Source: Acidilobaceae archaeon (lineage in GTDB: Archaea; Thermoproteota; Thermoprotei_A; Sulfolobales; Acidilobaceae). From it: a stretch of 64,000 nucleotides of DNA. The stretch's first letter is position 1; the number at the start of each line of letters is the position of its first letter. The notes beneath the pieces were generated by a model. It ran no database searches and was not told the origin of the DNA. It worked only from the letters and a program-made list of their open reading frames with translations. Position numbers and translations under genes: made by a program. The stretch covers positions 192,001 through 256,000 of the forward strand of contig JAWAWX010000001.1 of the NCBI GenBank assembly GCA_038897215.1, read 5' to 3'. Shown in pieces: positions 2,109-63,048 of this stretch.

Positions 2109-2166
2109 GGCGATGAGAGGCGCTGGGTTGGCTGAGATCGTGATGTGTTCACGAACCACTCGAGCC
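2109..2166 (+). ncRNA. Box C/D sRNA candidate with variant boxes
   Basis: GGC stem; C ATGAGAG 2113-2119; 12-nt guide; D' CTGA 2132-2135; C' GTGATGT 2140-2146; 13-nt guide; D TCGA 2160-2163; GCC stem. TTTAAA lies about 20 nt upstream. Confidence 0.75.
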
Positions 2167-2180
2167 CTGCTTCTCCCGTG

Positions 2181-3308
2181 CTACCCCAAGAGGCTAGACG
2201 CGAGAGAAGCGAGGGCTCTCGTGTTCAGCAAGCCGAGAGCTCCGCGACTCCTCAGAATCCTGGTAGCGACAGCTACTAGATTCTCGCCGTGTCTATCGTA
2301 GTCTAGTCTCATCAGCTCCCCTTCCAGAGCTCTCTCCAGAGCTCTCAAAGCCTCCTCGACGAGCACTGGGTTTTCGTGAGCGAGCCTAGCTATGGGCGCG
2401 AGTACTCTCATCTCTCTAGCTACGTGAGCAACCGAAGCTTCAACGGACTCCACGAGACTCCCCCCTCTTCTAATCAACCGCCCAGCGATCTCGGCTGCTA
2501 GAGCGTTCGGATAGAGCCCTCCGCCTGTTAGAGGCTTGTTTAGCGCGGCCGCGTCGCCCACGACTAGCACTCTTCCAGCTCTAATCCTGGAGGAGGGAGG
2601 TCCGAGGACTACTGTTCCACCATAGGTGGCTCTAGGCTCTCCTAGCGCGAGCTCTCTCTCGAGTCTATCGAGAAGCCTTGTGGCTACTCTCTTCTCGCGA
2701 GCTCCAAGCCCTAGAGTGGTCTCGCTCCCTCTCGGAATCCTCCAAGCGAAGAACCCGTGGGGGTACCGTTCTCCCAGATAGACTTCGATAGCTCTTCCTC
2801 TCGCGGGAACCAGGTAGTCTCTGTTGACTCCGTAGACTACTCTAGGCTCGTGCGTTAATCCCAGAGCTCTCCTGAGAGCCCCCATGTACCCCTCTGCTAG
2901 CAGGACTAGGTCGTAGCTCTCCCAGGAGCCTCTAGCTTTGACCGACCCGTCGGCAGACACTCTATCAACTCTTGAGTTCAGCTCGATTCTAGCGCCTAGC
3001 CTCTCGGCTTTCTCCAAGAGCTTCTCTTCTAGCGCTCGCCTATCGAGTCTCGCGACTCCCCCCTCAACTAGCACTGTCACGCTAGACGCTCTCCCCACTA
3101 GCCTCACGAGCTCGTACACGTTCTCCACGCTACTCAAGGCAGGGTCGCCGATTAGCCTCACAGTCCTCATAGAGACTAGCCCAGTGCAGTGTCTAGGAAC
3201 ACCCACAGCGCTGTGCTCCTCGTAGACCGTCACGCGAACCCCGGCTTCGGCTAGCTTTACGGCGAAGATGAGCCCAGCGAACCCTCCCCCCACGATAGCA
3301 ACCTTCAA
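2181..3308 (-). CDS. Geranylgeranyl reductase-family FAD-dependent oxidoreductase
   Basis: GGGFAG Rossmann motif, PRHCTG, FAWRIP, VGDAA...PLTGGG. Confidence 0.8.
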   Translation of the reverse strand: MKVAIVGGGFAGLIFAVKLAEAGVRVTVYEEHSAVGVPRHCTGLVSMRTVRLIGDPALSSVENVYELVRLVGRASSVTVLVEGGVARLDRRALEEKLLEKAERLGARIELNSRVDRVSADGSVKARGSWESYDLVLLAEGYMGALRRALGLTHEPRVVYGVNRDYLVPARGRAIEVYLGERYPHGFFAWRIPRGSETTLGLGAREKRVATRLLDRLERELALGEPRATYGGTVVLGPPSSRIRAGRVLVVGDAAALNKPLTGGGLYPNALAAEIAGRLIRRGGSLVESVEASVAHVAREMRVLAPIARLAHENPVLVEEALRALERALEGELMRLDYDRHGENLVAVATRILRSRGALGLLNTRALASLASSLLG

Positions 3309-3554
3309 GGAGCACTCCTCCAGAAGAGTCTCGGAGAAGCGGGAGCACTGTTATCTAAAAAGCTCTCACTAGCCCCCCTCTCTAGCAGATTCCGGCTTTG
3401 CTCACGTATCTCGACGATACCCACGGTAGGCTATGCTGCTTAAGTGATCTCAGAGCGTGAAAGCTGTCTACGAGCGTAGATCGAGGAGCGGCTAGAGTCT
3501 TGAGGTAGACTCTTTTTTAGCGCTCGAGTCTTCTACGCGTAAGACTGGAGACGC

Positions 3555-4316
3555 GTGTTGAGATTCCACCTAGCTTACTCTAAGGCTTCTAAGTTCAAGT
3601 ACGTCACTCTAGCTTTATCCAAGATCAGCGATGAGTGTAATCTAAGTGTTACAGAGGATGGAGTCACGTTCTGGATGATGAGCCCCGATAAGACGATCAT
3701 GGCTGTAGTCTCGATACCCCCGCTATCGCTCGACGCTTTCGAGGTAGACGAGCCAGTAAGGCTCGTCGTGAGAACAGAGGATTTACACAGGGTAGCGAAG
3801 AGAGCGGGGAGGAACGATGTGCTAGAGCTAGAGCTACCAGAGGGGGAGACGGGCTTCGTGTCATCGAGGCTCGTCGATAAGAAGACGGGGATGCAGCGGT
3901 CCTTCGAGATCCCAGTGCTCTCGACTAGCGGGGCCGAGTACAGAGAGCCCAGGATCAGCACTACGGCTAGGTTCACGATGAACTCCAAGGACTTCAAGCT
4001 GCTATCGCAGGACGTCAAGGTAGTAGGAGACACTCTAGCGGTGAGAGCAGTCTCCGGAGAGGTCAGAGTGACTGCTAGAGGCGAGAACAAGCTCTACGAG
4101 TGGGTCCTCAAGCCCGGAGACCCCCTCATAGACCTAGACGTCGAGGAGCCCTCCGAGTCTCTCTACTCGAGGTCATCGATAGACATAGCGGTGAAGCCTG
4201 CTGGAGCAGCTGAGACGGTTAGATTCGAGTTCGCCACAAACTACCCGGCCAGGCTGACATTCAACCTGCCTGGCGGAGAAAAGATGATGATACTTGTGGC
4301 TCCCATCGTCGAGTAG
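3555..4316 (+). CDS. pcn: DNA polymerase sliding clamp PCNA (one of the crenarchaeal paralogs)
   Basis: 253 aa; MSPDKTIM, V.FEFATNYP.RL.F and C-terminal LVAP motifs typical of PCNA. Confidence 0.88.
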   Translation: MLRFHLAYSKASKFKYVTLALSKISDECNLSVTEDGVTFWMMSPDKTIMAVVSIPPLSLDAFEVDEPVRLVVRTEDLHRVAKRAGRNDVLELELPEGETGFVSSRLVDKKTGMQRSFEIPVLSTSGAEYREPRISTTARFTMNSKDFKLLSQDVKVVGDTLAVRAVSGEVRVTARGENKLYEWVLKPGDPLIDLDVEEPSESLYSRSSIDIAVKPAGAAETVRFEFATNYPARLTFNLPGGEKMMILVAPIVE

Positions 4317-4318
4317 CG

Positions 4319-4867
4319 GTGAGAGCCACGAAGCTGGTAGCTATAGCGGCTCACAGCGGGAGCTACGACGAGAGTCTAGAGGAGGCAGCTAGGAGGCTAG
4401 TCGCGTCTCTCACTACACACTGCGGAGACGTAGCGCTACTCCTAGGCGGGTATTGGGGCTTAATGAAGGTAGTGGCAGACGAGGCTCTATCGCGAGGCCT
4501 CACAGTCGTAATCCTGCCCCCGCTAGAGAGAGAGCACGAGAGCTTCCCTGAGAAAGCGATAGTCGTAAGGACGGGGGTCAGCTATAGAGTCAGGAGCGTC
4601 TTCCTAGCGAGGAGCTGCGACGCTATGGTGGCTCTAGGGGGAGCAGCTGGGGTCATCCAGGAGGCTGTAACAGCGTACACCGAGAGCAAGACAGTCTTCC
4701 TCCTCAAGAGCGGCCTAGATAGCGATAAGCTTGAAGCACTAGCCCCCTACCTAGACTACAGGAGGCTCGCCCCCATACTAGTCTACAGTGACCCCGAGAG
4801 CCTAGCCAGAGACCTCTGCGCGTACCTCTCTAGCCGTGACCAATCAGTAGTAACGGAACACGGCTAA
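4319..4867 (+). CDS. LOG/TIGR00725-family nucleotide-binding protein
   Basis: GGYWGLM, RSVFLARSCDAMVALGGAAG..QE. Confidence 0.8.
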   Translation: MRATKLVAIAAHSGSYDESLEEAARRLVASLTTHCGDVALLLGGYWGLMKVVADEALSRGLTVVILPPLEREHESFPEKAIVVRTGVSYRVRSVFLARSCDAMVALGGAAGVIQEAVTAYTESKTVFLLKSGLDSDKLEALAPYLDYRRLAPILVYSDPESLARDLCAYLSSRDQSVVTEHG

Positions 4868-4972
4868 AACTCCATACAACTTTCTAGATTCTCAACGATC
4901 TAGACGTACGTCTTCATGATTAACTTTTTAAATTTCGACAACACTTGAGAAGTCTAAGGGTGGTCTCCCCCC

Positions 4973-6679
4973 ATGACTGCCGAGACTGTAAGCGATACCT
5001 CGGCAAACCCTGCTCCTAGCCTCCTCTCGGGAGAACTCCTCAAGCTCTTAGGCGAGGGGGAGAAGCCTGTCAAAACCACTCTGAGCTTATGTCCTGAGTG
5101 TCGCAGACTTGTCTTAGCGCTTATACTCGAGCGTGAGGGGAGACTCTACATAAGGAAAGAGTGCCCGGTTCACGGCATCGAAGAGGATGTCTACTTTGGA
5201 GACGCGAGTATCTACGCTAAATTCATGAGGTTCCAGGAGAGGGGAAAGAGAGTCCTAGCAGAGGAGCACAGCGCAGAAGCTAGTGAGCTATGTCCCTTTA
5301 GTTGCGGACTCTGCTCGCTTCATGAAAACGCTCCAGCTTTAGTCAACATAGTGGTCACTAACCGTTGCGACCTCTCATGCTGGTACTGCTTCTTCTACAT
5401 GGAGAGAGCCGGCTATCTATACGAGCCGAGTATTGAGGAGATAGAGTTCATGGCTGAACGCGTAGGGAAGCAGAAGTACCCTGCTGGAGTCCAGCTCACT
5501 GGAGGAGAGCCTCTTCTGAGAGAAGACTTGGTCGAGATTGTTAGAGCGATCAGAGACAAGGGTGTTCCATACGTTCAGCTCAACACGAATGGGATTAGGT
5601 TAGCAGTCATGTTCTTAGAGAATGAGGAAAAGGCAGTGAATTACGCTAAGAGTCTAGCTGAAGCTGGGGTCTCAGCTATCTACATGAGCTTCGATGGAGT
5701 CACTCCGGAGACTAACTGGAAGAATCACTACGAGGCTCCATTCGCTCTCGAAGCTTTCAGAAGAGCCGAGCTCAACGTGGTTCTAGTCCCTACACTCTTG
5801 AGGGGAGTCAATGACCACGAGCTAGGAGACATGATCAGATTCGCTGGCAAACACATCGAGGTAGTAAGGGGGGTCAACGTCCAGCCCGTGAGCTTCACTG
5901 GGAGAGCTAGTAGAGCAGAAAGGGAGAGATACAGGATCACCATACCTGATGTAATGAGAGCTGTTGAGGATCAAACAAGTGGAGAGATACCTAGAAAGTC
6001 GTGGTTCCCCGTCCCTATCGTGGCTAAGCTAACGAGACTCATGGACTTCATCCTAGGCGGAGACTACCTAGCCTGGGCTAACCACCCTGTCTGTGGAGCA
6101 GCCACATTCGCTATCGTAGCTGAGAGAGATGAGAACCACGTACCAAGGAGATTCATAGCTCTCACTGACTTTTTCGACGTAGAAGGGTTCATAGAGTATG
6201 TGGATGAGCTAAGAATAGAGGTCGAGAAGAGGGGGGGAGCAACACTTCTAGATAAAGCCAGACTACTCGCCAGTATTCGTAGATTCGTTGACGCTAGCAA
6301 GCTACCTAGAGACATCAAGCCCGCGCGCCTGCTAGCTAAGTTCCTGCTAGGAGCCAATATAGAGGCTGTGAAAGAGTTCTTGAAGCACAGTCTTCTAATT
6401 GGAGCAATGCACTTCATGGACCTCTACAACTACGACGTGGAGAGAGTGAAAAAATGCAATATCCTCTACGCTCTCCCAGACGGGAGGCTAGTACCGTTCT
6501 GCGCCTTCAACGTGCTCCCAGACCGCTATAGGGAGGAGGTGCAGAGAAGGTTCTCGAAGCCAGTCACAAAAGCCAGCACCAGGGAGGTCTTCAAATACGA
6601 TAGAGGCAAGTACATAGAGTCGATATTGAAGCACCCTATCTACTTGAGCTACTATCGCGGGATACTGTCCGGTCTCTGA
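4973..6679 (+). CDS. tes: Radical SAM tetraether lipid synthase (Tes/GDGT-MAS, MJ0619 family)
   Basis: N-terminal CPEC...CPVH metal site, CPFSCGLC, radical SAM CDLSCWYC, HPVCG, MHFMDLYNYD, CNILY..PDGRLVPFC. Confidence 0.8.
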   Translation: MTAETVSDTSANPAPSLLSGELLKLLGEGEKPVKTTLSLCPECRRLVLALILEREGRLYIRKECPVHGIEEDVYFGDASIYAKFMRFQERGKRVLAEEHSAEASELCPFSCGLCSLHENAPALVNIVVTNRCDLSCWYCFFYMERAGYLYEPSIEEIEFMAERVGKQKYPAGVQLTGGEPLLREDLVEIVRAIRDKGVPYVQLNTNGIRLAVMFLENEEKAVNYAKSLAEAGVSAIYMSFDGVTPETNWKNHYEAPFALEAFRRAELNVVLVPTLLRGVNDHELGDMIRFAGKHIEVVRGVNVQPVSFTGRASRAERERYRITIPDVMRAVEDQTSGEIPRKSWFPVPIVAKLTRLMDFILGGDYLAWANHPVCGAATFAIVAERDENHVPRRFIALTDFFDVEGFIEYVDELRIEVEKRGGATLLDKARLLASIRRFVDASKLPRDIKPARLLAKFLLGANIEAVKEFLKHSLLIGAMHFMDLYNYDVERVKKCNILYALPDGRLVPFCAFNVLPDRYREEVQRRFSKPVTKASTREVFKYDRGKYIESILKHPIYLSYYRGILSGL

Positions 6680-7316
6680 ACTCTCGAAGAGCCATCCTTA
6701 CAGCGAATAGCGCTAGGAAGGCGGCGAGCAGTAGCAGGAGAGCAGCGTAGACCCTGTAGTCTATGGAGCCGGCCGCGCTCCCTACTGCTGCGAGGAAAGC
6801 GAGCCAGGCGAAGTCTATGGATACGTGTACAACGTACATGGCGGCGAGCCCAGCGTAGCCTAGTCTACGCGACTCGGCTATGAGAGGGTAGCCCACGGTG
6901 ACCCACCATAGGAGGAAGTGAGCGTTGAGCCCTGTTAGAGCTAGCCCCGCTACTAGAGCCTCGGTGAGCTTCACGCTTCTAACGCCAGCGTCTACCTCGA
7001 GAGCTCCCGTAGAGTAGACGTCGAGAGCGCTGGATGCCAGCAGGTAGGCGAAGTAGAGCATGAAGATGATAGCAGCAACAGTCATGTACGGCCTGAGTCT
7101 CCTGATACCGCTCTCCACACTCTCTAATGTCTTGTAGAGGAGGACTACGTAGGGTAGCTCGAAGAGAGCGTGGCCCACAGCTACAGCAACCCCCCCGGCT
7201 ACGCCGAGGCTGGCTCCAGACGCTAGAGCAGACGCTGAGAGAGGGCCCGGAGCCAGGGCTCCAGTAGGCGTTATGGCTAGAGTTAACAGTAGCAAAGCCA
7301 GCAGCTCTCTAGCCAT
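6636..7316 (-). CDS. LysE-family translocator
   Basis: GALAPGP, GHALFE, N.HFLLWW; multi-TM. Confidence 0.85.
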   Translation of the reverse strand: MARELLALLLLTLAITPTGALAPGPLSASALASGASLGVAGGVAVAVGHALFELPYVVLLYKTLESVESGIRRLRPYMTVAAIIFMLYFAYLLASSALDVYSTGALEVDAGVRSVKLTEALVAGLALTGLNAHFLLWWVTVGYPLIAESRRLGYAGLAAMYVVHVSIDFAWLAFLAAVGSAAGSIDYRVYAALLLLLAAFLALFAVRMALREFRDRTVSRDSSSSR

Positions 7317-7483
7317 TCCTCCAACCTGCCTGAAGCAGGAGAAGATAGCGCCTATTAAGTGCTATTATTGGAAAGCCGTGAATCTAAGACTCGAGGTCTC
7401 GCCACTACACGCTCACAGTGCTTCTCAACAACTGTAGCTCGACGGAGGATGGAGGCGACTGGCGGCAGTCGAGAGTAGAGCCT

Positions 7484-8155
7484 CTAGAACGGGGGGTTGT
7501 AGAAGACCAGGTAGTACGAGCCGATTAGTATCACGAGAGCTAAGAGTAGCGCTCTAGCTAGGAGCACTGTCCTCAGGTTTAGCGAGAGATGCTCGGCTAA
7601 TAGTGTGGGGATGAAGGCTGCGATGATTAGAGGAGACACTATTATCGCGCAGTAAATCACAACAAATAGCGCTCTAACAGTCCAAGACGCTACGTGCGAG
7701 GAGAGGAGCCCTAGGAATATCAGGTAGGGAGCGGCTGAGCACAGCATGAAGCTCCAGGATACTAGAACACCGTAGACGAGAGCCCCTCCGAGGAGCCAGA
7801 GTCCTGAGAGTCTCTGAACCCAGGCTGGGAGGCACTCTCCAACTCTGCAAGCCGCGGTCTCGCTCTTCAGAGCTTCTCGTAGATCGAGTACTAGGAGCGC
7901 GAGCGCTAGAGCTAAGACTAGCGCTAGGAGAATCCTGAAGTAGGCGAGGATAGAGCTTAAAGCTAGGCCTACTAGCACGTAGCCACAGTATACTCCCAGG
8001 ATGAAGAAGGCTGGGAGAGCGAGTCTCCTAGCTCCCCTAAAGCCTAGAGTAGACGAGTAGAGAGCTAGAACAGCTGTTGTCGAGATCGCGCATGCGTTGA
8101 GCGAGTCTATCGAAGCATAGACAACCATCAACACCAAGAGATGCGAGAGGTCCAC
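7484..8155 (-). CDS. CcdA/DsbD-like membrane thiol-redox protein
   Basis: About 6 TM helices; DSLNAC and CSAAPY resemble the two membrane cysteines of CcdA-like proteins. Confidence 0.55.
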   Translation of the reverse strand: MDLSHLLVLMVVYASIDSLNACAISTTAVLALYSSTLGFRGARRLALPAFFILGVYCGYVLVGLALSSILAYFRILLALVLALALALLVLDLREALKSETAACRVGECLPAWVQRLSGLWLLGGALVYGVLVSWSFMLCSAAPYLIFLGLLSSHVASWTVRALFVVIYCAIIVSPLIIAAFIPTLLAEHLSLNLRTVLLARALLLALVILIGSYYLVFYNPPF

Positions 8156-8213
8156 TCGAGAGCTCCCCCGCAGGGAGAGTCTATCGCTTAGGTAATATTT
8201 TAGAAGAACAGCT

Positions 8214-9122
8214 CTAAGCCGGCATGAATGCCGGAGAATCCATCGTGGCTACAGTCTTCTCAGCCTCTATCCTAGCTCTAAGATATCTAGGTACGCTGAA
8301 GATATGCTTGTGCGCTATGGAGTCGTAGAATCTGGTCTCCACGCCTAGTCTCGCTAGAGCTTCATCCACAAGCTCGGCTTCAAGAGACTCGGGGTCTTTG
8401 TAGTCAGAGGCGATCACGAAGCCCCATAGGGATTGGAAGCTGGGGACATAGACGTGATAGTATGCTGTGTGCTTAAACACGCTCCTGACGGTATTGTAGA
8501 TTATGGAGTGAGTTCTGGGAGTACTCGAGGGGCTCGTAGCCTGAGTCACGAACACTCCGTTCTCCTCCATGATCGAGCGCACTCTCTCGTAGAACTCTCT
8601 CGTATAGAGCTTGTAGGATGGACCGGCCTCCACGGGGTCTGAGAGGTCTGCTATCACTACATCGAATTTCTCGCTCGTGCTGAACACGTAGTCGAGAGCA
8701 TCACCGATCACAAGCTCTAGCCTCGGGTCTTCGAAAACACCTCTATTCATGAACTCTAGGTGCTCTCTAGACACCTTGATCACTTCCTCGTCTATGTCGA
8801 CCATGACTACTTTCTCCACGCTCCTATACTTGAGGACCTCTCTCGCGGTCGCTCCCTCTCCTCCGCCCAGGATGAGGACTCTCCTAGGGCTTCCGTGGAG
8901 CACCATTGCTGGATGCACTAGTGACTCGTGGTAGACGAACTCATCTGCTTCAGACGACTGAGTCTTACCGTCTAGCACGAGGAGCTTCCCGAAATCCTCT
9001 GTTTCAGCGACTATGATCTCCTGATATTTCGAGACCCTGTAGTCAATTATTCTCTTGAAAACCTTAACGTGAGCCAGACCCGGGGTATCCCACTCGAGGA
9101 AGATCAGATAAGGCATTCTCAC
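8214..9122 (-). CDS. speE: Polyamine aminopropyltransferase (spermidine synthase)
   Basis: LDGKTQS..DEFVYHE, LILGGGEGAT.RE, DVVIADLSDP. Confidence 0.95.
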   Translation of the reverse strand: MRMPYLIFLEWDTPGLAHVKVFKRIIDYRVSKYQEIIVAETEDFGKLLVLDGKTQSSEADEFVYHESLVHPAMVLHGSPRRVLILGGGEGATAREVLKYRSVEKVVMVDIDEEVIKVSREHLEFMNRGVFEDPRLELVIGDALDYVFSTSEKFDVVIADLSDPVEAGPSYKLYTREFYERVRSIMEENGVFVTQATSPSSTPRTHSIIYNTVRSVFKHTAYYHVYVPSFQSLWGFVIASDYKDPESLEAELVDEALARLGVETRFYDSIAHKHIFSVPRYLRARIEAEKTVATMDSPAFMPA

Positions 9123-9301
9123 AGCGAGCCACCGAGAAGCCTAGTGGGAGCGCTAGCTTCCAGCTATATGCTTTGAGCTCTCCTTCAAGCTTAGTGGCGC
9201 TAGAGCTCCAGAGAACCGGGTAGCGCTGAGTAGCTGGTCGCGGGGCTCTCGCTCTCCAGCTTTTTAGGGAGCGGTTCGCGGTCTAGGGTCTGAGGGCTCT
9301 C

Positions 9302-10045
9302 TTGGAGCGGGATAGGGGCTCTCTCAGAGTCGCTGTGCTTGATGTAGACGGTACTCTGACCGTTAGGCGGGGTAGCCTTCTGCTCTCTCCCGAAGCCGTC
9401 GTGGCTGTTCGCGTCTTGAAGTGTATGGGGATGATTGTCTCTCTAGTCTCAGGCAACTCTCTCCCCATTGTAGCCGGGCTCTCCGCCTACCTCGGTGCAG
9501 ACATAGCCATTGGCGAGAATGGCTGCATAGCTCTGCTAGAGGGAGAGGAGGAGGTCCATATCTGTAAGTCTAGGCCTCCCCGGTGGCTCGTGGAGGAGGT
9601 CTTGAAGCTAGGCTTCAGGGAGTCTTGGCAGAACAAGTTTAGAGTCTACGACCTAGCATTCTACCCTCCTCCCGGCGACCTGACTGGAGGCTTGAGGAGA
9701 GCTAGAAAGCTAGCTCTCGAGAACGGCTTTGCCGCATCCTGGTCTGGCTACGCTCTCCACATACACCCACGAGAGGGAGGCAAGGATAGAGGCGTTGAGG
9801 CTATTCTCGAGAAGCTAGGGCTCGAGTGGAGCAATGTCTTAGCTGTAGGGGATGGAGATAACGATGCTGTCGTGTTAGCGAAAGCGAGAATGTCTATAGC
9901 GCTAGCAGACGCCTCCGAGCTAGCTAAAAGAGCCTCGACGGTGATCGCTAGGAGCACCGGGGGGTCTGGCGTGCTAGAAGCTCTCCTCGAGCTAGCAGGC
10001 TTTGAGAGCTACTCGGAGGCTCTATCTAGATGCGGGAGTCTCTAG
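9302..10045 (+). CDS. HAD-family phosphoglycolate phosphatase (TA0175-like)
   Basis: DVDGTLT, SGN, ENG, K, GDGDND motifs. Confidence 0.85.
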   Translation: MERDRGSLRVAVLDVDGTLTVRRGSLLLSPEAVVAVRVLKCMGMIVSLVSGNSLPIVAGLSAYLGADIAIGENGCIALLEGEEEVHICKSRPPRWLVEEVLKLGFRESWQNKFRVYDLAFYPPPGDLTGGLRRARKLALENGFAASWSGYALHIHPREGGKDRGVEAILEKLGLEWSNVLAVGDGDNDAVVLAKARMSIALADASELAKRASTVIARSTGGSGVLEALLELAGFESYSEALSRCGSL

Positions 10046-10918
10046 CGCTGGCTCAGCTTTCCTGAAAGCTCTCACAACGCTCGCTTCAGGCCTCTTACCC
10101 ACAGGGAATATCATGACGGGGAACTCTTCCTCACAGTCTATCTCTAGAATCCTGCAGACATCATCATCGTAGAACGCTCCCACGGCTACAGTAGCTAGGT
10201 TGAGTGCTTCAGCAACGAGGTACACGTGCTCAGACGCCATAGCAGCATCTAGGAGCACGTAGCGATACGCTCGAAGCCCGTATCTGCTCGCAGTCCTCCT
10301 GTAGACAGCAGTCACTACTATAATGGCTGGAGCTCTAGCGACAAATGTCTGGTCTAGAGAGGCTACGGAGAGAGCCACGGAGAAGTCTCCTCTCTTGAGT
10401 AACTCGAGACTATGCTCGCTAGGATTGTAGTGGTATAGCCCTCTATCCAAGCCCGTCACTCTAGACGCCGCCAGGTAGAGCTCGACAGGCTGGAGGTTGC
10501 CAGCGCTAGGGTAGGCTCTGAGAAGCTCTCCCCACCTAGTCCTAGAGGTCACTCCCGCGGTGTAGTACAGGAGAGCAGAGACCTCGCTCAGGCTCAGAGG
10601 CTCGTGAGAGTAAGACCGTCTGCTCCTCCGAGACTTGATAGCAGTGAATACATCGACCCCGCTCTTCTCAAGAGGCTCAGGTAGAGGAATCCTTATAGCG
10701 TTCGGGTAGACTTTGTGGAATGGCTCTGATTTATATAGAAGACTCATACCCAGATAGCCGCGGCTATGGAGCGAGAGGTAGTGGTACACCAGAGACGGGT
10801 CTCTCTTCTCTCTAGCTCTTCTAAGCCCTCTAGCCAGAACTCTAACCACGTCCTCCGGCAGGGTATCACATAGCTTCTCTACTGCTTCACTAGCCTCTCT
10901 TAAACTCACTCTCTTCAC
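10022..10918 (-). CDS. SagB/ThcOx-family nitroreductase-fold protein
   Basis: RRSRR, RAYPSAG.L.P.ELY, YG.RAYRY..LDA, VGAFYDD. Confidence 0.9.
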   Translation of the reverse strand: MKRVSLREASEAVEKLCDTLPEDVVRVLARGLRRAREKRDPSLVYHYLSLHSRGYLGMSLLYKSEPFHKVYPNAIRIPLPEPLEKSGVDVFTAIKSRRSRRSYSHEPLSLSEVSALLYYTAGVTSRTRWGELLRAYPSAGNLQPVELYLAASRVTGLDRGLYHYNPSEHSLELLKRGDFSVALSVASLDQTFVARAPAIIVVTAVYRRTASRYGLRAYRYVLLDAAMASEHVYLVAEALNLATVAVGAFYDDDVCRILEIDCEEEFPVMIFPVGKRPEASVVRAFRKAEPALETPASR

Positions 10919-15575: not shown

Positions 15576-15577
15576 AG

Positions 15578-17891: not shown

Positions 17892-17899
17892 CTCTAGAG

Positions 17900-19074: not shown

Positions 19075-19131
19075 GGCTGTGAGCGAGACCACCGACTCTG
19101 AGGAGATGATGTAGCCCAGCGATGGTGAGCC
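19075..19131 (+). ncRNA. Box C/D sRNA candidate with variant boxes, overlapping the trkH start
   Basis: GGC stem; C GTGAGCG 19079-19085; 12-nt guide; D' CTGA 19098-19101; C' ATGATGT 19106-19112; 12-nt guide; D GTGA 19125-19128; GCC stem. Confidence 0.7.
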
Positions 19132-42562: not shown

Positions 42563-42620
42563 GGGCTCGCGTCAGGTGTCTCTCGTCAGCGGTCGGCAAT
42601 ACCGGCCTCGCTCATCGCCC
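42563..42620 (-). ncRNA. Box C/D sRNA candidate with variant boxes
   Basis: GGGC-G-AUGAGCG-AGGCCGGUAUUG-CCGA-CCG-CUGACGA-GAGACACCUGAC-GCGA-GCCC: two 12-nt guides, 4-bp terminal stem, canonical K-turn geometry. Confidence 0.75.
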
Positions 42621-50096: not shown

Positions 50097-50632
50097 GCGA
50101 TGCCGTGGAGCGCTCTCGCTCGCTAGCGGTCAGAGAGAGGTACGAGGTAGCGTGCGATAGCTACGACGAACTCTACAAAGAGGAGCAAGCGGAGAAGTAC
50201 TACGTGGCTCTGAAGTACAGCAAGCCAGAGGGGGTTGTGCTCGACGCGGGCTGCGGCACCGGGCTCTTGGCCGAGTACCTGGAGAGCGTCGGGGCCTCCG
50301 GCAGGATCGCTCTCTACATATGCCTGGACTACAGCTCTTGCATGATCAGAGAAGCCAGGAGGAGGCTCGAGACCCTCGGGCTCCACTACGCTCTACTAGA
50401 GGCTTCTCTCGAGAGCCTACCGCTAGCCTCGGGGTCAGTCGACACGGTCTACTCTATCACAGTCCTCAACCTGCTAGACGACCCCGTAGAGGGCCTCAGA
50501 GAGCTGAGGAGAGTATCGAGAGGGCCCGTTCTAGTCACTGTGCTCAGAGAGTCCGGGGCCACGGGGCCCCTCCTAGAGGAGGGCTGCAGGCTGCTGGAGT
50601 CGACTAGCAAGGATGACGTGCTCGCGTGCTAG
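50093..50632 (+). CDS. Class I SAM-dependent methyltransferase
   Basis: YDELY.EEQ.EKY, VLDAGCGTG. Confidence 0.85.
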   Translation: MSDAVERSRSLAVRERYEVACDSYDELYKEEQAEKYYVALKYSKPEGVVLDAGCGTGLLAEYLESVGASGRIALYICLDYSSCMIREARRRLETLGLHYALLEASLESLPLASGSVDTVYSITVLNLLDDPVEGLRELRRVSRGPVLVTVLRESGATGPLLEEGCRLLESTSKDDVLAC

Positions 50633-50690
50633 AGATCGCTGGGGCGATTCTCATCACTCGTCAGCCGATGGCGTACCGCTCACGAGCTCC
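50632..50690 (-). ncRNA. Box C/D sRNA candidate with variant boxes
   Basis: GUGAGCG-GUACGCCAUCGG-CUGA-CGA-GUGAUGA-GAAUCGCCCCA-GCGA; terminal stem is weak. Confidence 0.65.
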
Positions 50691-55470: not shown

Positions 55471-57129
55471 ATGCCGGTAGTCAGAGTCAAGAGGTGGAGG
55501 CTTGAGGAGCTCACTGGCTTCGCTCCCAGAGAGCTCGAGGAGCTACTATTCAGGCTGAAGTGCGAGCTGGAGGTTAGAGAAGACTACGCCTACATCGAGG
55601 TAAACAGCGATAGACCCGACATGCTGATAGGAGAAGGCATAGCTAGAGCAGTGAAGGGGCTCTTGGGAGAGAGGAGAGGCTGGAGGCTGCCGGAGACAGC
55701 TCGCTCGAGAGTCTCTCTCAGAGCGAGCAGCGTCCCCTCCAGGCCCTACGTTGCCTGCGCTGTGATCAAGAACGTCGACATCGACTCAGAGGACTTCCTC
55801 GAGGAGCTCATACAGTTCCAGGAGAAGCTCCACGACGGGCTCGGCAGGAGGAGGAGGAAGGCGGCCATAGGGCTTCACGACTTGAGCAAGCTACCCTCGG
55901 AGAGCGTAGAGTACACTCTAGTAAGCCTCGGCAGCAGATTCAAGCCCCTCGGGGGTAGCGGGGAGCTCACCGTAGAAGAGGTCTTGGAGAGCACGGAGAA
56001 GGGTAGAGCGTACGGGGGCATAGCTCTCTACGGCGGAGCACACCCGGCTCTCGTATCCGGAGGGGAGATCATAGCGATACCCCCGGTGCTCAACTCAGAG
56101 GTCACTAGAGTAGAGGTTGGGACTAGGCACCTCTTCGTGGACGTGACGGGCACAGACGAGAGGCTAGTCGAGACCATACTAGACATCATAGCATCCACGC
56201 TCTCGGAGAGACGGGGAGCAGTAGTGGAGCTAGTTGAGGTCAAGAGGGGAGAGTCGAGTAGAGTCTACCCCGTCTTCCGCTCCAAGAGGCTGACTGTTGC
56301 CTCGAGCTTCTTCACTCAAACGCTAGGAGTAGAGCTCAGCCCCGGGGAGGTGGTGGACGGCTTGGAGAGAATGCTCCACAATGCTAGCGCCAGCGGGGAG
56401 GAGGTCGTAGTAGACGTGGCTCCATTCAGAGTAGACGTGCTAAAGCCCGTGGACCTCGCTGAAGACCTGGCTATATCTCTGGGCTACGATAGGATCGCTG
56501 AGGGCTCGAGAAGCCATAGAGTCTACACGGTGGGCTCTCTCCTCGAGGAGACGAGGCTAGCTAGGAGGGTCAGAGAGCTCATGGTCGGCTACGGCTTCGT
56601 AGAAGTCTCTAGGCTGATGCTGACAAGCCCTCGGCTTCTCGAAGCCCTGAAGGTAGCTGAGGTAGCTCTCAGAGTAAGCAACCCCGTCCAGCTAGAGTAC
56701 AGCGTCCTGAGGCCAACGCTGGCAGCGAGCTTGCTCGACGTCTTGAGAGAAGAGCAGCATAAAGAGAAGCCGCTGAAGCTCTTCGAGCTAGGCCCCGTAG
56801 CCTCGAGGCTGAAGCGCCCCGCTGAGGAAGACATCAGGCTAGGAGCAGCTATACTCGACTACTCCGTAGGCTACGAGGACATCCAGGCAGTAGTCTACTC
56901 TCTCCTAAGACTCCTAGGCGTGAGCTTCACAACAGAGCCCTCCAGGATACCATTCCTGATAGAGGGGAGGCAAGCGCTCCTCCGAGCAGGAGGCACAGCA
57001 ATAGGGTGGCTGGGCGAAGTGCGCCCAGACATCCTAGAAGCGACGGGAATAGAGTACCCCACAGCTATAGCGGAGATATCGCTAGACGCTCTACTCGAGA
57101 CTCTGAGGAGAGCACTCAGCACTCCATAG
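55471..57129 (+). CDS. pheT: Phenylalanine--tRNA ligase beta subunit
   Basis: DRPD, QEKLH...GR.R, PP.LNS, R.DV....D..ED, FE.G. Confidence 0.95.
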   Translation: MPVVRVKRWRLEELTGFAPRELEELLFRLKCELEVREDYAYIEVNSDRPDMLIGEGIARAVKGLLGERRGWRLPETARSRVSLRASSVPSRPYVACAVIKNVDIDSEDFLEELIQFQEKLHDGLGRRRRKAAIGLHDLSKLPSESVEYTLVSLGSRFKPLGGSGELTVEEVLESTEKGRAYGGIALYGGAHPALVSGGEIIAIPPVLNSEVTRVEVGTRHLFVDVTGTDERLVETILDIIASTLSERRGAVVELVEVKRGESSRVYPVFRSKRLTVASSFFTQTLGVELSPGEVVDGLERMLHNASASGEEVVVDVAPFRVDVLKPVDLAEDLAISLGYDRIAEGSRSHRVYTVGSLLEETRLARRVRELMVGYGFVEVSRLMLTSPRLLEALKVAEVALRVSNPVQLEYSVLRPTLAASLLDVLREEQHKEKPLKLFELGPVASRLKRPAEEDIRLGAAILDYSVGYEDIQAVVYSLLRLLGVSFTTEPSRIPFLIEGRQALLRAGGTAIGWLGEVRPDILEATGIEYPTAIAEISLDALLETLRRALSTP

Positions 57130-57246
57130 CTCCTCAGCGCTCCTAGAGCCGGCCTCGAGACCAGGGCCTTCTCGCATTGCTCTGGAGAGCTTAGCGTTTA
57201 TAGCCCTAGCTCGGCTTCGCTGTGACTTGGAGGACTAGGGTAGCGT

Positions 57247-57987
57247 ATGGCTAAGGAGTCTGGCGACGAGTCTAGGCATAGCGAGGCTAGGAGGGAGGCT
57301 GTGAGGGTCCTCCAGATCCTCTCGAGGTTCTACAGCTATAGGGTTCTTGAGCGCATATACGGGATCCACTTCCAGAACCTCTGGAGGTACGCGAGCCTCC
57401 TCAGCGTCCCCGAGAGGGAGACTGCTGAGAGGATACTCGAGAAGACGAGAGAGCTGGGGCTACTGGAGAGAGCTCTCAGAGAGAGAGCAGCAGGGTCTCT
57501 GGCCAACGGGGGGCTTCACGTGCTCGCTAGAGACACGGGCTTCCTCCAGCTAGCCTCGTATCTCGTGTCTAGGAGGCTGAGAGAAGAGAGGGAGGAGCGC
57601 GTAGACTCAGTGATAGCTGTGTCGCACGAGGCTCTCACTCTAGCGACAGCACTGGCTCTCGAGCTAGAAGCGGAGGTCTGCGTAGCGTCTGAGAGAGCTA
57701 GAGCAGAGCCTAGGGGCGTTCTGCTAGCTCACTTCAGGTCCAGGTTTAGCGGTGAGGTCTTCTCCCTAATGGTCCCCAAGCAGTGTCTCGATAGCGGAGA
57801 CTCGGTGGTGCTCGTTGACGTGGAGCTGAGAGAGGCTGATAGAGTGTCGGCGCTCGCTTCTCTAGCGAGGAAAGCGGGAGCTAGAGTAGAGGCTATCGTA
57901 GTCCTTAGAGCGAGCAGAGAAGCGCTAGCCGAGGTGGAGAGAGATCTCGAGAAATCCAGAGTGATAGAGGTCCTCCCCGAATTATAG
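57247..57987 (+). CDS. HTH plus degenerate phosphoribosyltransferase-domain protein (putative regulator)
   Basis: YSYR.L...YGI....L.RY helix-turn-helix; PRT-like VVLVD followed by VELREAD instead of DD...GG. Confidence 0.65.
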   Translation: MAKESGDESRHSEARREAVRVLQILSRFYSYRVLERIYGIHFQNLWRYASLLSVPERETAERILEKTRELGLLERALRERAAGSLANGGLHVLARDTGFLQLASYLVSRRLREEREERVDSVIAVSHEALTLATALALELEAEVCVASERARAEPRGVLLAHFRSRFSGEVFSLMVPKQCLDSGDSVVLVDVELREADRVSALASLARKAGARVEAIVVLRASREALAEVERDLEKSRVIEVLPEL

Positions 57988-58050
57988 CCGAGAGCAGTCA
58001 GGCAATACCTATTAGCTTCAACCTCCAAGACGAGCTAGGGGCTAGAAGGC

Positions 58051-59277
58051 TTGCCTAGCTACACGGTAAGGCTTCTCCACGTCTCGGACACTCATCTAGG
58101 CATCAAGCCCTACGGGTTGCTGGATAGGGAGAAGGATGTCTACGATGCGTTCATGGAGGTAGTCGAGATCGCTAAGAGCGAGAGAGTAGACGCTGTTCTA
58201 CACGCTGGAGACATGTTCGATAAGAGCACTCCCCGACCGGCTACGCTCATGGTGGCAGTCAAGGGGCTCCGAGAGCTCGCAGAGAGAGAAGTCAAGGTCT
58301 ACGTGTCTCCAGGCAATCACGAGCACCCCAGAGCTGTGGACGAGGGCTCTCCCGTGAGGCTCCTAGAGCTCGTAGGCTTACTCAAAGGCCCCGACCCCAG
58401 GGTTCAGAGCGCTCCCACAGTCTACAGGCTGGGGTCTGAGGGAAGAGTGATTCTAGCGGTATTCCCGCCAACGGCTACTCACGCTCTCAGAGGCTTCAGC
58501 ATGGAGAAAAAGCGGGGAGAATTCCTGATAGCCTTGGCTCACGTTAGGCTCTGCGATGCTCTCAGAGACGCTGAGGGAGTCCCCCTAGAGAAGTGTAGCT
58601 CCACAACGCCCATCTTCTCTTCAGACATAGCGGGCAACGTGGACTACGCTGCTCTAGGAGACCTCCACGAGACCTGGGAGGGCAGGCTACCCGGGGGCGG
58701 GAAAGCAGTGTACCCTGGAGCCACCGAGCACTTCGCTGTAGACGAGTACGAGAGGAGCCAGGGGAGGAGGCTCGTCTACCTGCTGAGAGTAGAAGACGGG
58801 GTCTTAGCTGAGCTGAAGAGAGTAGAGTTGAAGAGCGTGAGGCCTTGGGTTGTTCTGCGTGCTCCCTACTCTGAGGTGGTTAGAGCTCTAGACGGCTTCA
58901 GGAGGAGCGGGGGCAAGCCCCCCTTGCTCTACGTCGAGATATCCGACCCAGTGGATAGAGCTAAGAGAGAGAGGCTAGTTCAGAGGCTGAAGGCTCTAGC
59001 GATGAGCGGAGAGATACTAGACTACGTGCTCCACGCTAGGCAGCACTCTCCAGAGGAGGTTGAAGCCTTCCGGAGAAGCGGAGAGCAACGCGTAGACGTG
59101 TCGCAACTCATAGCAGAGGCTCTCAGAACACTGGCTAGAAGGCACTCTATCAGAGAGGAGTGCGTTAACGCAGTGGGGCTAGCTGAGAAGCTGAGAGACT
59201 TCGTGCTCTCTCCCTCGGATGAGAAGGCTAGGCAGCTCGTGAGAGACCTTGAGAACGCTGTGTCTCAGTGTGGGTGA
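58051..59277 (+). CDS. mre11: Mre11/SbcD nuclease
   Basis: SDTHLG, AGDMFD, PGNHE, YAALGDLH, YPGA.E. Confidence 0.85.
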   Translation: MPSYTVRLLHVSDTHLGIKPYGLLDREKDVYDAFMEVVEIAKSERVDAVLHAGDMFDKSTPRPATLMVAVKGLRELAEREVKVYVSPGNHEHPRAVDEGSPVRLLELVGLLKGPDPRVQSAPTVYRLGSEGRVILAVFPPTATHALRGFSMEKKRGEFLIALAHVRLCDALRDAEGVPLEKCSSTTPIFSSDIAGNVDYAALGDLHETWEGRLPGGGKAVYPGATEHFAVDEYERSQGRRLVYLLRVEDGVLAELKRVELKSVRPWVVLRAPYSEVVRALDGFRRSGGKPPLLYVEISDPVDRAKRERLVQRLKALAMSGEILDYVLHARQHSPEEVEAFRRSGEQRVDVSQLIAEALRTLARRHSIREECVNAVGLAEKLRDFVLSPSDEKARQLVRDLENAVSQCG

Positions 59278-59286
59278 GCCTCCTCC

Positions 59287-61563
59287 TTGATGATCAAGAG
59301 GGTAGAGCTAGACAAGGTGATGTCTCACGAGCACACTGTAGTAGAGTTCGGTAGAGGAGTGAACGCCATAGTGGGCCCCAACGGGAGCGGCAAGAGCGCG
59401 ATCATAGACTCCATAGTCTTCGCTCTGATAGGTGGATGCGTTAGAGGAGAGGAGGCTGTTAGAGCAGAGCTCTCGAACATGGTGAGAGTAGGCTCGAGAA
59501 GAGCATCGATAACAGTAGAGTTCGAGATAGGCGGCAAATGCTACAGAGCCGAGAGAGTCATAGCTCTAGGGGGCGACGCTCAGAGCCAGGTCTCTCTCAG
59601 AGAGTGCTCTGGAGCCCTGGTAGCCCATGGGAGAGAGAGCTTCTGCAACAAGATGCGAGAGCTGCTGGGGCTAGACAACCTCAAAGCGCTCACCTACACT
59701 CTAGTAGCCAGACAGGGGCACCTCTCAGACTTCATCGATAGCGAGCCATCGAAGAGAGCAGAGATGACTCTAGAACTCCTAGGCCTAGCCTGGCTCGATA
59801 AGGCTAAGGAGGCTCTGGGGAGAGCTCTGAAGAGTCTCGACGTCGAGGTCGCTGTTCTATCCAGAGAAGAGGAGAGAGCGAGAGCTCTCGAGACTGAGTG
59901 CTCTAGCTTGAGGAAGAGGCTGGAGAAGCTCTCGGAACTCGAGAAGAAGCTCTCCGAGGAAGTCGGGGAGCTCGAGGCTAGAGTAGAGGCCGCCAGGAGG
60001 GAGGTAGAAGAGCTGGGGAGCGTCCTGCCATCTCTAGAGAAGCTGAGAGCCTACGAGCGGTACAAGAGAGAGGCTGAGGCTCTAGAGAGGGAGGTGGGGG
60101 AGCTCAGGGAGAGAGCGGAGAAGCTATCCCCATACAGGGAGGCAGCCAGTCTAGCTCGCGAAGAGCTCGCCTACTACACTGCTCTAGAGAACAAGGCTAG
60201 AAGGCTGGAGAGAGAGCTAGCAGAGCTGGAGAAGCGCCTGGAGAGACTTCTGGGAGGCTCTACGCTAGAAGAGCTGGAGGCGAGGCTCGAAGAGCAGAAG
60301 AGAGTAGAAGAGGAGCTTCTACGCAGATACAAGGAGCTAGAGGCAGAGGAGAAGATAGTCTCGGCTGTTCTGCAAGCAGGGCTCTCGAGCGATAAGTGCC
60401 CTCTCTGCGGTAGCCCTCTGGATGAGAGCCGCAGAAGGCACATAGAGGAGTCTCACGGAGCTAGGCTCGAGGAGCTCAAGAGAGAAGTCCCTAGGCTCAA
60501 GCGGTTGCTAGACGAGGCCACGGCTAGGAGGAGAGAGCTAGAGGACTCGATCAAGAAGGCTAGAGAAGTAGTCGCTGAGCTAGAGAGAGCGAGGAGAGAG
60601 CTAGAGGAGTCTCGCGCGGAGCTAGAGTCTCTCCTCGAGAAGTACAATAGGCTAGCGGAGAGGCTGGGCTTGCCTAGAGCTGAGAGCTTCGAGGAGTGCA
60701 AGCTGAGACTCAGAGACGTAGAGAGCAGTCTAGCAGAGCTAGAGAAAGTCGAGAAGACGCTGGAGAGAAAGCTGGGCTCTCTCAGCGCCATCAAGTCGGC
60801 TCTAGCTCAGTTCGACGAGACCGAGATCGAGAGAGCTCGCGCTGTAGCGAGAGCTCTAGGAGCCCCCATCGAGGAAGCTGAGAGAGTGTATAGAGAGCGC
60901 TCCGCTAAGCTCGAGGAGCTCCGCTCAAGCCTCGAGAAGACTAGAGGGAGGCTGGCTGAAGTCAGGGGGGAGATGAGCGCTCTAGAGTCGCAGCTAGCCT
61001 CCAGAGAGGCGGAGCTAGCTAAGCTGAGAGAGTCTCTCAAGAGCCTAGCGGCTAAGAAGAAGGCTCTAGCGGTAGCGGAGAAGCTCTACGGAGAGTATCT
61101 AGGCAAGAGCGGCTATATCAGCGTGAAGGCTCTAGAGAGCTTCAGGAAGAGCTTCTCCATAGTGGTCAACGACGTCCTAGCGAGACTAGGGAGAGACTTC
61201 GCTATAGAGCTCACAGACAACCTCGACGTCAGGGTTAGGAGAGAGGGTCAGGAGCTTTCAGTGAACTCTCTTAGCGGAGGGGAGAAGACCATGCTCTCGA
61301 TAGTCTCTAGGATAGCGCTAGCATCCATGGTCTCGAATAAGAGAGTGTCAGTCCTCATCCTAGACGAGCCTACAGAGTATCTTGATGCCGAGGCTAGGAA
61401 GACAGTCTTCGAGACCATAAGAGAGGTAGCGGGCTACATAGACCAGATAATAGTGGTGACGCACGACCCCGAGGTCGAGGACATAGCGGACACTCTGGTC
61501 CACGTGGAGAAGAGAGGAGGCTCTAGCAGAGTAGTCGTTGAGAAGGTGGCGGGCTCCAGCTAG
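59287..61563 (+). CDS. rad50: Rad50 SMC-like ATPase
   Basis: GPNGSGKS, Q-loop, coiled coil with CPLC zinc hook, LSGGE, LDEPT, VTH. Confidence 0.9.
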   Translation: MMIKRVELDKVMSHEHTVVEFGRGVNAIVGPNGSGKSAIIDSIVFALIGGCVRGEEAVRAELSNMVRVGSRRASITVEFEIGGKCYRAERVIALGGDAQSQVSLRECSGALVAHGRESFCNKMRELLGLDNLKALTYTLVARQGHLSDFIDSEPSKRAEMTLELLGLAWLDKAKEALGRALKSLDVEVAVLSREEERARALETECSSLRKRLEKLSELEKKLSEEVGELEARVEAARREVEELGSVLPSLEKLRAYERYKREAEALEREVGELRERAEKLSPYREAASLAREELAYYTALENKARRLERELAELEKRLERLLGGSTLEELEARLEEQKRVEEELLRRYKELEAEEKIVSAVLQAGLSSDKCPLCGSPLDESRRRHIEESHGARLEELKREVPRLKRLLDEATARRRELEDSIKKAREVVAELERARRELEESRAELESLLEKYNRLAERLGLPRAESFEECKLRLRDVESSLAELEKVEKTLERKLGSLSAIKSALAQFDETEIERARAVARALGAPIEEAERVYRERSAKLEELRSSLEKTRGRLAEVRGEMSALESQLASREAELAKLRESLKSLAAKKKALAVAEKLYGEYLGKSGYISVKALESFRKSFSIVVNDVLARLGRDFAIELTDNLDVRVRREGQELSVNSLSGGEKTMLSIVSRIALASMVSNKRVSVLILDEPTEYLDAEARKTVFETIREVAGYIDQIIVVTHDPEVEDIADTLVHVEKRGGSSRVVVEKVAGSS

Positions 61564-61642
61564 CCAGGTATGACTCTAGACTCTAGAGCGAGCACGCTCT
61601 AGCCTCTTGAGTCCAGCGTAACGCTTATTAGCTCAGGCTGCT

Positions 61643-62953
61643 GTGGAGAGCCTTTCGAGCGAGGAGAGAAGGGGATGTCTTTTAAACAGTCTGCCTAGGA
61701 TACTCCCGTCTCGTCCTCTCAGAGGAGAGCCATACCTAACCGACGCCACCTTGAGAGAAGGCCAGCAGGCCTGGAGGCCCTTCTCGGAGGCTGAGGCTCT
61801 GAGGGTATACGAGGCTCTAGCTGAGCTCAACGGAGGAGGCAGAGCTATCAGGTACACGGAGGTCTTCGTCTACAGCGAAAAGGATAGGAGGCTAGCTAGG
61901 AGGCTCTTGGAGGCCGGCTACGAGTACCCCAGAGTGAGGGGCTGGATTAGAGCAACAAAGCAGGACGTGAGGCTCCTAGCTGAGAGCGGCTTAGAGGAGA
62001 CAGTAGTCCTCACATCGATATCCGATTACCACATACACTTCAAGCTAGGAGTGAACAGAGAGGAGGCTCTAGAGTCCTACCTCGAGGCGGTAGAGGAGGC
62101 GTATAGGAGGGGCGTCGTGGTCGAGTGCGCTCTAGAAGACGTTACCAGAGCCGACCCGAGGCTCGTGAGAGAGTTCCTCGAGAGGCTAGTCAGGCTAGCT
62201 GAGCGCTACGGAGTAGAGCCTAAGGCCAGACTCTCGGATACTCTAGGCTTAGGGCTCCCCTTCAGAGAAGCTGAGCTACCGAGAAGCGTCCCTAGGCTCG
62301 TAGAGCTAGCTCTAGACGCTGGACTCAAACCCGAGAACCTGGGCTTCCACGGGCACAACGACTTCGGGCTAGCCACTGCGAACCACCTAGCGGCTTGGCT
62401 CAGCGGAGCCATGGAGGCTAACTGCACTCTACTCGGGGTAGGCGAGAGGACGGGGAACTGCCCCCTTGAGCTCATGCTACTCCACTACGTCTCGCTGACC
62501 GGTAACAGCGCTAACCTCCGAGCAGTCACGAGAGCAGCTCAACTGCTAGCAGGCATGGGCTGGAGGATTCCGGAGAACCAGCCTCTAGTCGGAGCGAAGG
62601 CTTTCACTCAGAAGTCCGGCATACACATAGACGGGTTGCTGAAGAACCCTCTCGTCTACCTACCCATGGACGTGGAGGAGGTTCTAGGCAGGAGCTTCGA
62701 GGTAGAGATAACCCCGTACTCGGGGAGAGCCGGGATCCTCTACTGGCTCCGGAGCAGGCTGGGAGTGACTCTAGACAAGAGCCACCCGGGCGTTGAGAGA
62801 GCAGCTGCGTTGATGAGAGAAGTCTTCAATGGCAGAGAGAGCCTGACAGACGAGGAGCTAGCGTCTATAGTGGCTTCAGCGATCCCAGAGCTCGCGAGCG
62901 TCATATGCTCGAAGCTAGGCTCTAGTACTCTACAGCAGTGCTCCAGCAGATAA
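61643..62953 (+). CDS. DRE-TIM metallolyase, Re-citrate synthase-like
   Basis: DATLREGQQ, EVFVYSEKDR, WIRA, SDYHI..KL, ED.TRAD, HGHNDFG, GERTGN. Confidence 0.75.
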   Translation: MESLSSEERRGCLLNSLPRILPSRPLRGEPYLTDATLREGQQAWRPFSEAEALRVYEALAELNGGGRAIRYTEVFVYSEKDRRLARRLLEAGYEYPRVRGWIRATKQDVRLLAESGLEETVVLTSISDYHIHFKLGVNREEALESYLEAVEEAYRRGVVVECALEDVTRADPRLVREFLERLVRLAERYGVEPKARLSDTLGLGLPFREAELPRSVPRLVELALDAGLKPENLGFHGHNDFGLATANHLAAWLSGAMEANCTLLGVGERTGNCPLELMLLHYVSLTGNSANLRAVTRAAQLLAGMGWRIPENQPLVGAKAFTQKSGIHIDGLLKNPLVYLPMDVEEVLGRSFEVEITPYSGRAGILYWLRSRLGVTLDKSHPGVERAAALMREVFNGRESLTDEELASIVASAIPELASVICSKLGSSTLQQCSSR

Positions 62954-62992
62954 AGCCTCGGTAGCCCCGAGACTCCAGGAGGGGAGCTAGCG

Positions 62993-63048
62993 GAGAGTGA
63001 TGATAGCCACGGCTCGGATGGATGAAGAGGGCTTGTGTTTCTGACCTT
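62993..63048 (+). ncRNA. Box C/D sRNA candidate with canonical terminal boxes
   Basis: C GTGATGA 62997-63003; 11-nt guide; D' CGGA; C' TGGATGA; guide; D CTGA 63041-63044; intergenic. Confidence 0.75.

Follow-up and report, generated by a model that had tools for sequence, protein, structure and literature searches.

Compensatory box variants in probable box C/D guide RNAs of an Acidilobaceae archaeon

Introduction

Can a box C/D small RNA (sRNA) whose terminal boxes depart from the consensus RUGAUGA/CUGA still be an ordinary methylation guide? The question is raised by a stretch of 64,000 nucleotides (nt), here called the window, which covers positions 192001-256000 of the genome of an Acidilobaceae archaeon (G000; a single contig, JAWAWX010000001.1 or C1, of 1.16 Mb with 54% G+C), a crenarchaeon whose DNA occurs in hot-spring metagenomes. 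An earlier note on this DNA had described four small elements with unusual boxes and a fifth, canonical one, and had proposed a lineage-specific box dialect. Our analysis indicates that these elements, E1 to E5, are very probably ordinary archaeal dual-guide box C/D methylation guides, in which stem II of the kink-turn (K-turn) needs pairing more than a given sequence.

In the proposed mechanism, L7Ae would bind the terminal K-turn and the internal kink-loop (K-loop) by reading the G.A pairs and the bulged U, after which Nop5-fibrillarin would assemble. Each guide would then direct 2'-O-methylation of the rRNA or tRNA nucleotide paired to the fifth guide nucleotide before box D or D' (N+5 rule). 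The non-consensus boxes would be compensated swaps of the stem II pairs 3b:3n and 4b:4n beside the invariant sheared G.A pairs. Selection would keep 4b:4n Watson-Crick while tolerating either orientation, and a swap would be rare because two changes are needed; once acquired, it would be passed on within the guide family concerned.

Anatomy of the elements

Direct sequence inspection confirmed all five elements together with the boxes attributed to them (window positions):

2109-2166, plus strand: E1, box C/D sRNA; stem 2109-2111/2164-2166, box C 2113-2119, D' guide 2120-2131, box D' (CUGA) 2132-2135, box C' 2140-2146, 13-nt D guide 2147-2159, box D (UCGA) 2160-2163
19075-19131, plus strand: E2, box C/D sRNA; box C 19079-19085, D' guide 19086-19097, box D' (CUGA) 19098-19101, box C' 19106-19112, D guide 19113-19124, box D (GUGA) 19125-19128
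42563-42620, minus strand: E3, box C/D sRNA; box C 42615-42609, D' guide 42608-42597, box D' (CCGA) 42596-42593, box C' 42589-42583, D guide 42582-42571, box D (GCGA) 42570-42567
50632-50690, minus strand: E4, box C/D sRNA; box C 50683-50677, D' guide 50676-50665, box D' (CUGA) 50664-50661, box C' 50657-50651, 11-nt D guide 50650-50640, box D (GCGA) 50639-50636
62993-63048, plus strand: E5, box C/D sRNA with canonical terminal boxes; core 62997-63044

All of them show the order C, guide, D', loop, C', guide, D within ~50-60 nt, with guides of 10-13 nt. At the sequence level, both motifs of every element have what the tandem sheared G.A pairs and the box C uridine of a K-turn and K-loop require, namely UGA in boxes C and C' together with GA in boxes D and D'. 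The literal RUGAUGA/CUGA is missing from the terminal boxes of E1 to E4. E1 (AUGAGAG/UCGA) has G-C at 3b:3n and A-U at 4b:4n, while E3 (AUGAGCG/GCGA) and E4 (GUGAGCG/GCGA) both combine G-C at 3b:3n with C-G at 4b:4n. E2 (GUGAGCG/GUGA) has C-G at 4b:4n and a G.U wobble at 3b:3n; the claim that C-box positions 5-6 remain complementary to D-box positions 2-1 therefore holds as to pairing, with this wobble as a reservation. A closing GGC/GCC stem with a 3-nt bulge occurs in E1, E2 and E3 (GGGC/GCCC in E3), as the earlier note had it, and no regular closing stem was found in E4. E5, which had been called canonical, is so at its terminal boxes only, its internal boxes being CGGA/AUGAAGA. For archaeal box C/D sRNAs RUGAUGA/CUGA is a consensus and not a requirement, and the mismatch of E1 to E4 is not disqualifying because named, expressed sRNAs have the boxes of E1, E3 and E4.

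E1 probably has its own promoter, judged from the TATA-like boxes TTATAA and TTTAAA and a purine-rich stretch resembling a transcription factor B recognition element, and from the position of E1 on the plus strand between two minus-strand genes:

2079-2092, plus strand: putative promoter of E1, ~25 nt upstream

Guide repertoire of the genome

A strict pattern of four boxes, in which the terminal and the internal motif both had to be paired, matched the genome 22 times, compared with 2.1 ± 1.3 matches in order-5 Markov genomes. Matches with variant terminal boxes numbered 15 as against 0.6, so that the scan against random sequence suggested earlier gave a clear excess. Scoring by pairing class, which ignores the letters of the pairs, yielded 33 matches at a score of at least 13, compared with 1.5 in the nulls. 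An Rfam scan returned no family match for E1 to E4; E5 matched sR5 at 37.2 bits, under the gathering cut-off of 40.

We retained 35 short-loop guides and added two with a long loop, giving a repertoire of about 37. The terminal 4b:4n pair of the short-loop guides is G-C in 28, C-G in five and A-U in two; including both long-loop guides, it is swapped in 9 of 37 guides and G:C in 28. The literal RUGAUG/CUGA occurs in 9 of the 35 short-loop guides, and a strict consensus search would recover only these. RUGAGG/CCGA, the commonest departure from consensus (8 of 35), keeps the G:C pair. Hence the expectation that consensus-based finders miss such elements was borne out, whereas the larger hidden repertoire deduced from it turned out to be modest, with about 37 guides in all and nine swapped.

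The long-loop guides lie at these genome positions:

G000:C1:409009, plus strand: long-loop sRNA (AUGACUA/AGGA) with a guide like that of Sac-sR111 and a 12-base-pair (bp) match to the T-stem of tRNA-Leu
G000:C1:535080, minus strand: long-loop sRNA (AUGAUAG/UUGA)

Another sRNA, at 408946-408992, directly precedes the first of the two.

Four of the seven swapped short-loop guides are located within 48.6 kb (window positions 2113-50683; scan p=0.013, post hoc). The earlier impression of a dialect can be traced to a window unusually rich in swapped guides. This cluster is syntenic in the congener G254 (G254:C1:417698-461758).

Covariation in homolog families

When the boxes were left free in the search, E1 homologs were found in 62 of 301 genomes from seven families (two in the control). 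Their 4b:4n pair (hand count, n=62) is C-G in 33, G-C in 12, A-U in eight and U-A in two, so that 55 of 62 are paired; six of the seven mismatched homologs belong to one genus. As four pair types are present, pairing in this family reflects more than one event. Among 30 fetched loci the pair was formed in 23 as against 9.6 ± 2.2 after shuffling, an excess inflated by kinship, the loci not being independent. The E2 family is paired in 8 of 8 cases (four C-G, four G-C). Homologs of E4, including I. hospitalis sR07, were detected in 24 of 201 genomes with G-C in 20 of the 22 parsed, and the double swap of E4 is confined to this genome and G254. E3 homologs likewise have G:C outside this genus and are swapped only in the same two genomes, with both guides conserved.

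Watson-Crick pairing of 4b:4n is thus maintained, with covariation in four families. The box changes are compensatory, as had been claimed, and the pattern indicates that the E1 and E2 families acquired the swap long ago, whereas for E3 and E4 it arose recently, within this genus. Circular permutation was considered as a source of the swapped ends and rejected: in T. tenax sR144 and the Ignicoccus members of the Sac-sR111 family, where the swap is at the internal motif, the guides stand in unchanged order.

The terminal C:G pattern extends to 123 of 301 genomes and 12 of 13 families of the order, with 205 matches compared with ~13 in the reversed control. Guides from 151 genomes carry G:C at both motifs in 1478 cases, an internal swap in 177, a terminal swap in 131 (hand sum) and both in 13. 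Terminal C:G accounts for ~8% of guides order-wide; its share is higher here (4 of 15 pattern matches) and in Ignicoccus (42 of 176), while most other genera of this family lack it. The swap is therefore enriched in this genus, not exclusive to it. In one family of the order, the strict four-box pattern matches genomes (G093, G146, G140) 41-59 times, severalfold above the usual count.

Predicted targets

Targets were sought with the N+5 rule in the located 16S, 23S, 5S, signal recognition particle (SRP) and RNase P RNAs and the tRNAs of the genome. This matching of guides to the organism's own stable RNAs, also proposed in the earlier note, yielded targets of 9-11 bp; in each element one guide or both can form about 9 bp or more with rRNA or tRNA, and the N+5 pair is Watson-Crick for every assigned guide.

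Both guides of E1 pair with helix 68 of 23S rRNA, at predicted sites 20 nt apart (U at genome position 1159345, ~E. coli 1863; C at 1159365, ~1883). Both guides of E5 also pair with 23S rRNA, at predicted sites 22 nt apart (G at 1158019, ~E. coli 597; A at 1157997, ~575). The predicted E3 sites fall 21 nt apart in helix 18 of 16S rRNA (A at 1156085, E. coli A535, 11 bp; G at 1156064, ~514, 9 bp with one mismatch). Such paired nearby sites of both guides are a hallmark described by Lui et al. 2018 (PMC6009581). The D' guide of E2 forms 11 bp with initiator tRNA-Met, predicting Gm49, and its D guide matches imperfectly at G26 of the same tRNA (8 of 12, with one internal mismatch). The D' guide of E4 forms 11 bp with three tRNA-Leu (UAG, GAG, CAG), predicting Um44; its D guide is not conserved and obtained no confident target in this search.

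A target score of at least 10 was reached by all seven swapped short-loop guides, compared with 17% of shuffled guides. Mean scores were 10.6 for swapped and 10.3 for unswapped guides, and 8.7 for the null. Swapped guides thus score like unswapped ones (p=0.23), which, with the uniform N+5 pairing, argues against the role other than methylation that had been envisaged.

Two further matches were put aside. The D' guide of E5 has a perfect 11-bp match in SRP RNA (G000:C1:51512-51834), which we placed second to the paired 23S sites. An 11-nt complement of the E2 D guide lies at C1:141451, immediately 5' of tRNA-Gly(CCC), and at 786403, immediately 3' of tRNA-Arg(UCU); it was treated as chance since it is absent in G254, G003 and G057 and the 10-mer is equally common reversed. 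Covariation between the E2 guides and initiator tRNA was not demonstrable in distant homologs, among which the tRNA was found only in G254.

Regarding the target RNAs themselves, several tRNAs apparently contain introns outside the standard positions, and ARAGORN, which called no tRNA-Trp in the genome, seems to have mis-assigned or overlooked them (C1:565387; 412641, 482226, 484591, 554827, 795988). The two ends of the contig share 127 nt that lie within the 23S gene (1157309-end and 128-about 980). The genome is taken as circular because of this overlap, the true circle being 1,159,397 nt; naive joining would duplicate part of 23S.

Core proteins

L7Ae, Nop5 and fibrillarin are all encoded in the genome. 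The nearest relatives of the L7Ae come from Acidilobaceae and Desulfurococcales genomes (78-82% identity). Its K-turn-binding helix and loop are kept, and the K-turn residues match those of solved structures, the nearest of which is 2fc3, from Aeropyrum pernix. The K-turn- and guide-binding segment of Nop5 is nearly identical to that of S. solfataricus Nop5 in the substrate-bound structure, and Q297 and R340 correspond, unchanged, to Q296 and R339 of that protein. Only through these two residues does Nop5 contact stem II in a sequence-specific way, the bases recognised being the C of box D and the final GA of box C (PMC5389607). The conserved contact residues give no sign of altered L7Ae or Nop5 specificity, contrary to what had been proposed.

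Weighing the explanations

Anatomy, excess over chance, covariation, conserved complementarity and unchanged protein contact residues all fit ordinary guides. Expression and L7Ae binding would follow by analogy with published homologs and analogs, and in this organism the elements would be transcribed and would guide methylation. Two metatranscriptomes, ~3% of each sampled and the organism's presence there not established, gave 0 reads at the loci, a result that carries no weight either way. Several points weigh against this reading. The canonical internal K-loop of Sac-sR120 could by itself account for the L7Ae enrichment of this sRNA (see below). No clean target was obtained for the D guide of E2 or of E4. 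Taken singly, guide matches of 9-11 bp have only moderate significance, and the best single-guide score of E1 is reached by 40% of shuffles; the E1 assignment is based on paired sites and conservation, not on a single match.

It is possible, though we think it unlikely, that the swapped terminal pair is a functional tuning. Swapped boxes lose the bases read by Q296 and R339 although these Nop5 residues are unchanged here, which might cause weak docking or a second register; assembly would then depend on the one motif kept canonical, and the methylated position may be N+6, or N+5 together with N+6, as for yeast U18 and snR48. Loss of the C from a yeast D' box can move the methylated site or add a second one (van Nues and Watkins, PMC5389607). 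In 25 of 30 E1-family loci (L122-L151) the 13-nt D guide ends in a base that could pair with position 6 of box C, compared with 4 of 35 guides genome-wide, 4 of 22 in the E4 family and 0 of 16 in the E3 family, but E1 itself lacks this D+1/C6 complementarity. In one genus of the E1 family box D begins with an unpaired A or G, which resembles a D box of five bases. In this family a swap at one motif tends to go with none at the other: nine of 12 E1 homologs with a terminal G:C have a non-G:C internal pair (hand count). Against a tuning, G:C serves the E3 and E4 families well outside this genus. Order-wide there is no significant avoidance of double swaps (odds ratio 0.83, p=0.67), and their deficit outside Ignicoccus (4 observed, 9.4 expected, p=0.10) is within background. 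Moreover, the doubly swapped sR301 and sR09 are expressed in I. hospitalis according to the supplement of PMC4644070. In the present genome swapped guides are not significantly associated with a canonical internal motif (3 of 7 versus 5 of 28, p=0.31), and a strict rule of one canonical motif per sRNA was rejected as not significant.

We consider it doubtful that the 4b:4n orientation is a selected family setting, in which loss of the Q296/R339 base contacts makes the supposedly symmetric archaeal ribonucleoprotein asymmetric and the D box of the helix-68 (E1) family slips by one base, so that one guide methylates two adjacent 23S nucleotides. If true, this slip would be the archaeal counterpart of yeast U18 and snR48.

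It is improbable that the elements serve a purpose other than methylation, be it as chaperones of rRNA or as K-turns acting in cis on adjacent mRNAs. L7Ae does regulate mRNAs via K-turns (PMC5539422), and two positions are suggestive. The 3' end of E2 overlaps the ATG (19122) of a TrkH-family open reading frame, its last guide bases and D box (19122-19131) forming the first codons, and E3 lies between alba and thyX, ~50 nt before thyX on the same strand. However, the guides are conserved while the neighbours are not: E3 adjoins thyX in 2 of 20 loci (congener only), and no E2 homolog adjoins trkH. E3 as a thyX leader was rejected on gene context, and N+5 pairing speaks for methylation, with which a side effect on an mRNA could coexist.

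A lineage-specific dialect read by altered L7Ae or Nop5 is very improbable and appears largely refuted by distribution and protein sequence: the restriction of swapped E3 and E4 to two genomes and the 9 of 37 swapped guides, compared with ~8% C:G order-wide, support enrichment in the genus, whereas 28 of 37 guides keep G:C, the swap is equally frequent in Ignicoccus, and published I. hospitalis and S. acidocaldarius sRNAs carry the same boxes. The elements themselves are ordinary guides, and their box swaps are not a private code of this organism.

For sRNA finders in Crenarchaeota it follows that stem II should be scored as base pairs and not as letters, as the literal consensus recovers about a quarter of the guides here. 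The E1, E3 and E4 families provide natural matched pairs, with the same guide in swapped and unswapped boxes, for weighing the Nop5 Q296/R339 contacts. They are also suited to asking whether these residues set the N+5 register in archaea.

Comparison with known systems

Close counterparts are found in I. hospitalis. The supplement of Dennis et al. 2015 (PMC4644070) contains RNA-seq-confirmed sRNAs with RUGAGCG/GCGA (sR22, 56, 132, 314, 401, 402, 405, 408 and 414), sR418 with AUGAGAG/UCGA, and three sRNAs with RUGAUCG/GUGA. These sRNAs (sR401, 402, 22, 414, 405, 56, 408, 132, 314, 418, 27, 207 and 417) have the size and layout of the present elements; their terminal boxes are identical to those of E1, E3 and E4 or, in those with AUGAUCG/GUGA, share the C:G pair and GUGA D box of E2. 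Their RNA-seq coverage is in the hundreds to thousands, and their guides differ from those of E1 to E4. Conversely, sR07 has the D' guide of E4 and sR21 a near-identical E3 D' guide, and both keep the terminal G:C. The swap itself is not discussed in the accessible part of that report, and our limited literature search found no paper treating the terminal swap as its subject.

In S. acidocaldarius, Sac-sR120 has the terminal boxes of E4 (GUGAGCG/GCGA; PMC4644070) and Sac-sR111 has C:G at 4b:4n. Both are expressed and enriched with L7Ae, with log2 fold changes of 3.33 and 3.83, respectively (Daume et al. 2017, PMC5539422). Their guides differ from those of E1 to E4, and the swap affects only a small minority of the Sulfolobus set. 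The C/D families of Pyrobaculum, which belongs to another order, are described by Lui et al. 2018 (PMC6009581) with variable K-turn and K-loop pair types, double guides to nearby sites and tRNA targets; 3-11% of the known sRNAs were missed by the model owing to unusual boxes.

With the consensus archaeal box C/D K-turn (Ashraf et al. 2017, PMC5689011) the elements have in common the tandem sheared G.A pairs, the U at L3, the 3-nt bulge and, by analogy, L7Ae-driven folding. In that consensus 3b:3n is mostly U:U and 4b:4n is "strongly conserved as G:C", in contrast to C:G in E2 to E4 and A:U in E1; E1 to E3 also differ by C:G at -1b:-1n. The C:G of E2 to E4 is the state of Kt-7, which favours folding in Mg2+. 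When 4b:4n and other elements were exchanged in fluorescence resonance energy transfer tests, all variants checked with L7Ae folded (PMC5689011).

Yeast snR13, snR48 and U18 (PMC5389607) have a D-type box without the 5' C and possibly a five-base D box, a likeness seen in E1-family homologs and not in E1. They are eukaryotic, the variation concerns the internal motif and dual methylation was established by experiment, whereas here it concerns the terminal motif and is known from sequence only. E1 to E5 are further archaeal box C/D guides, and the compensatory variant of E1 to E4 is already present in published sets.

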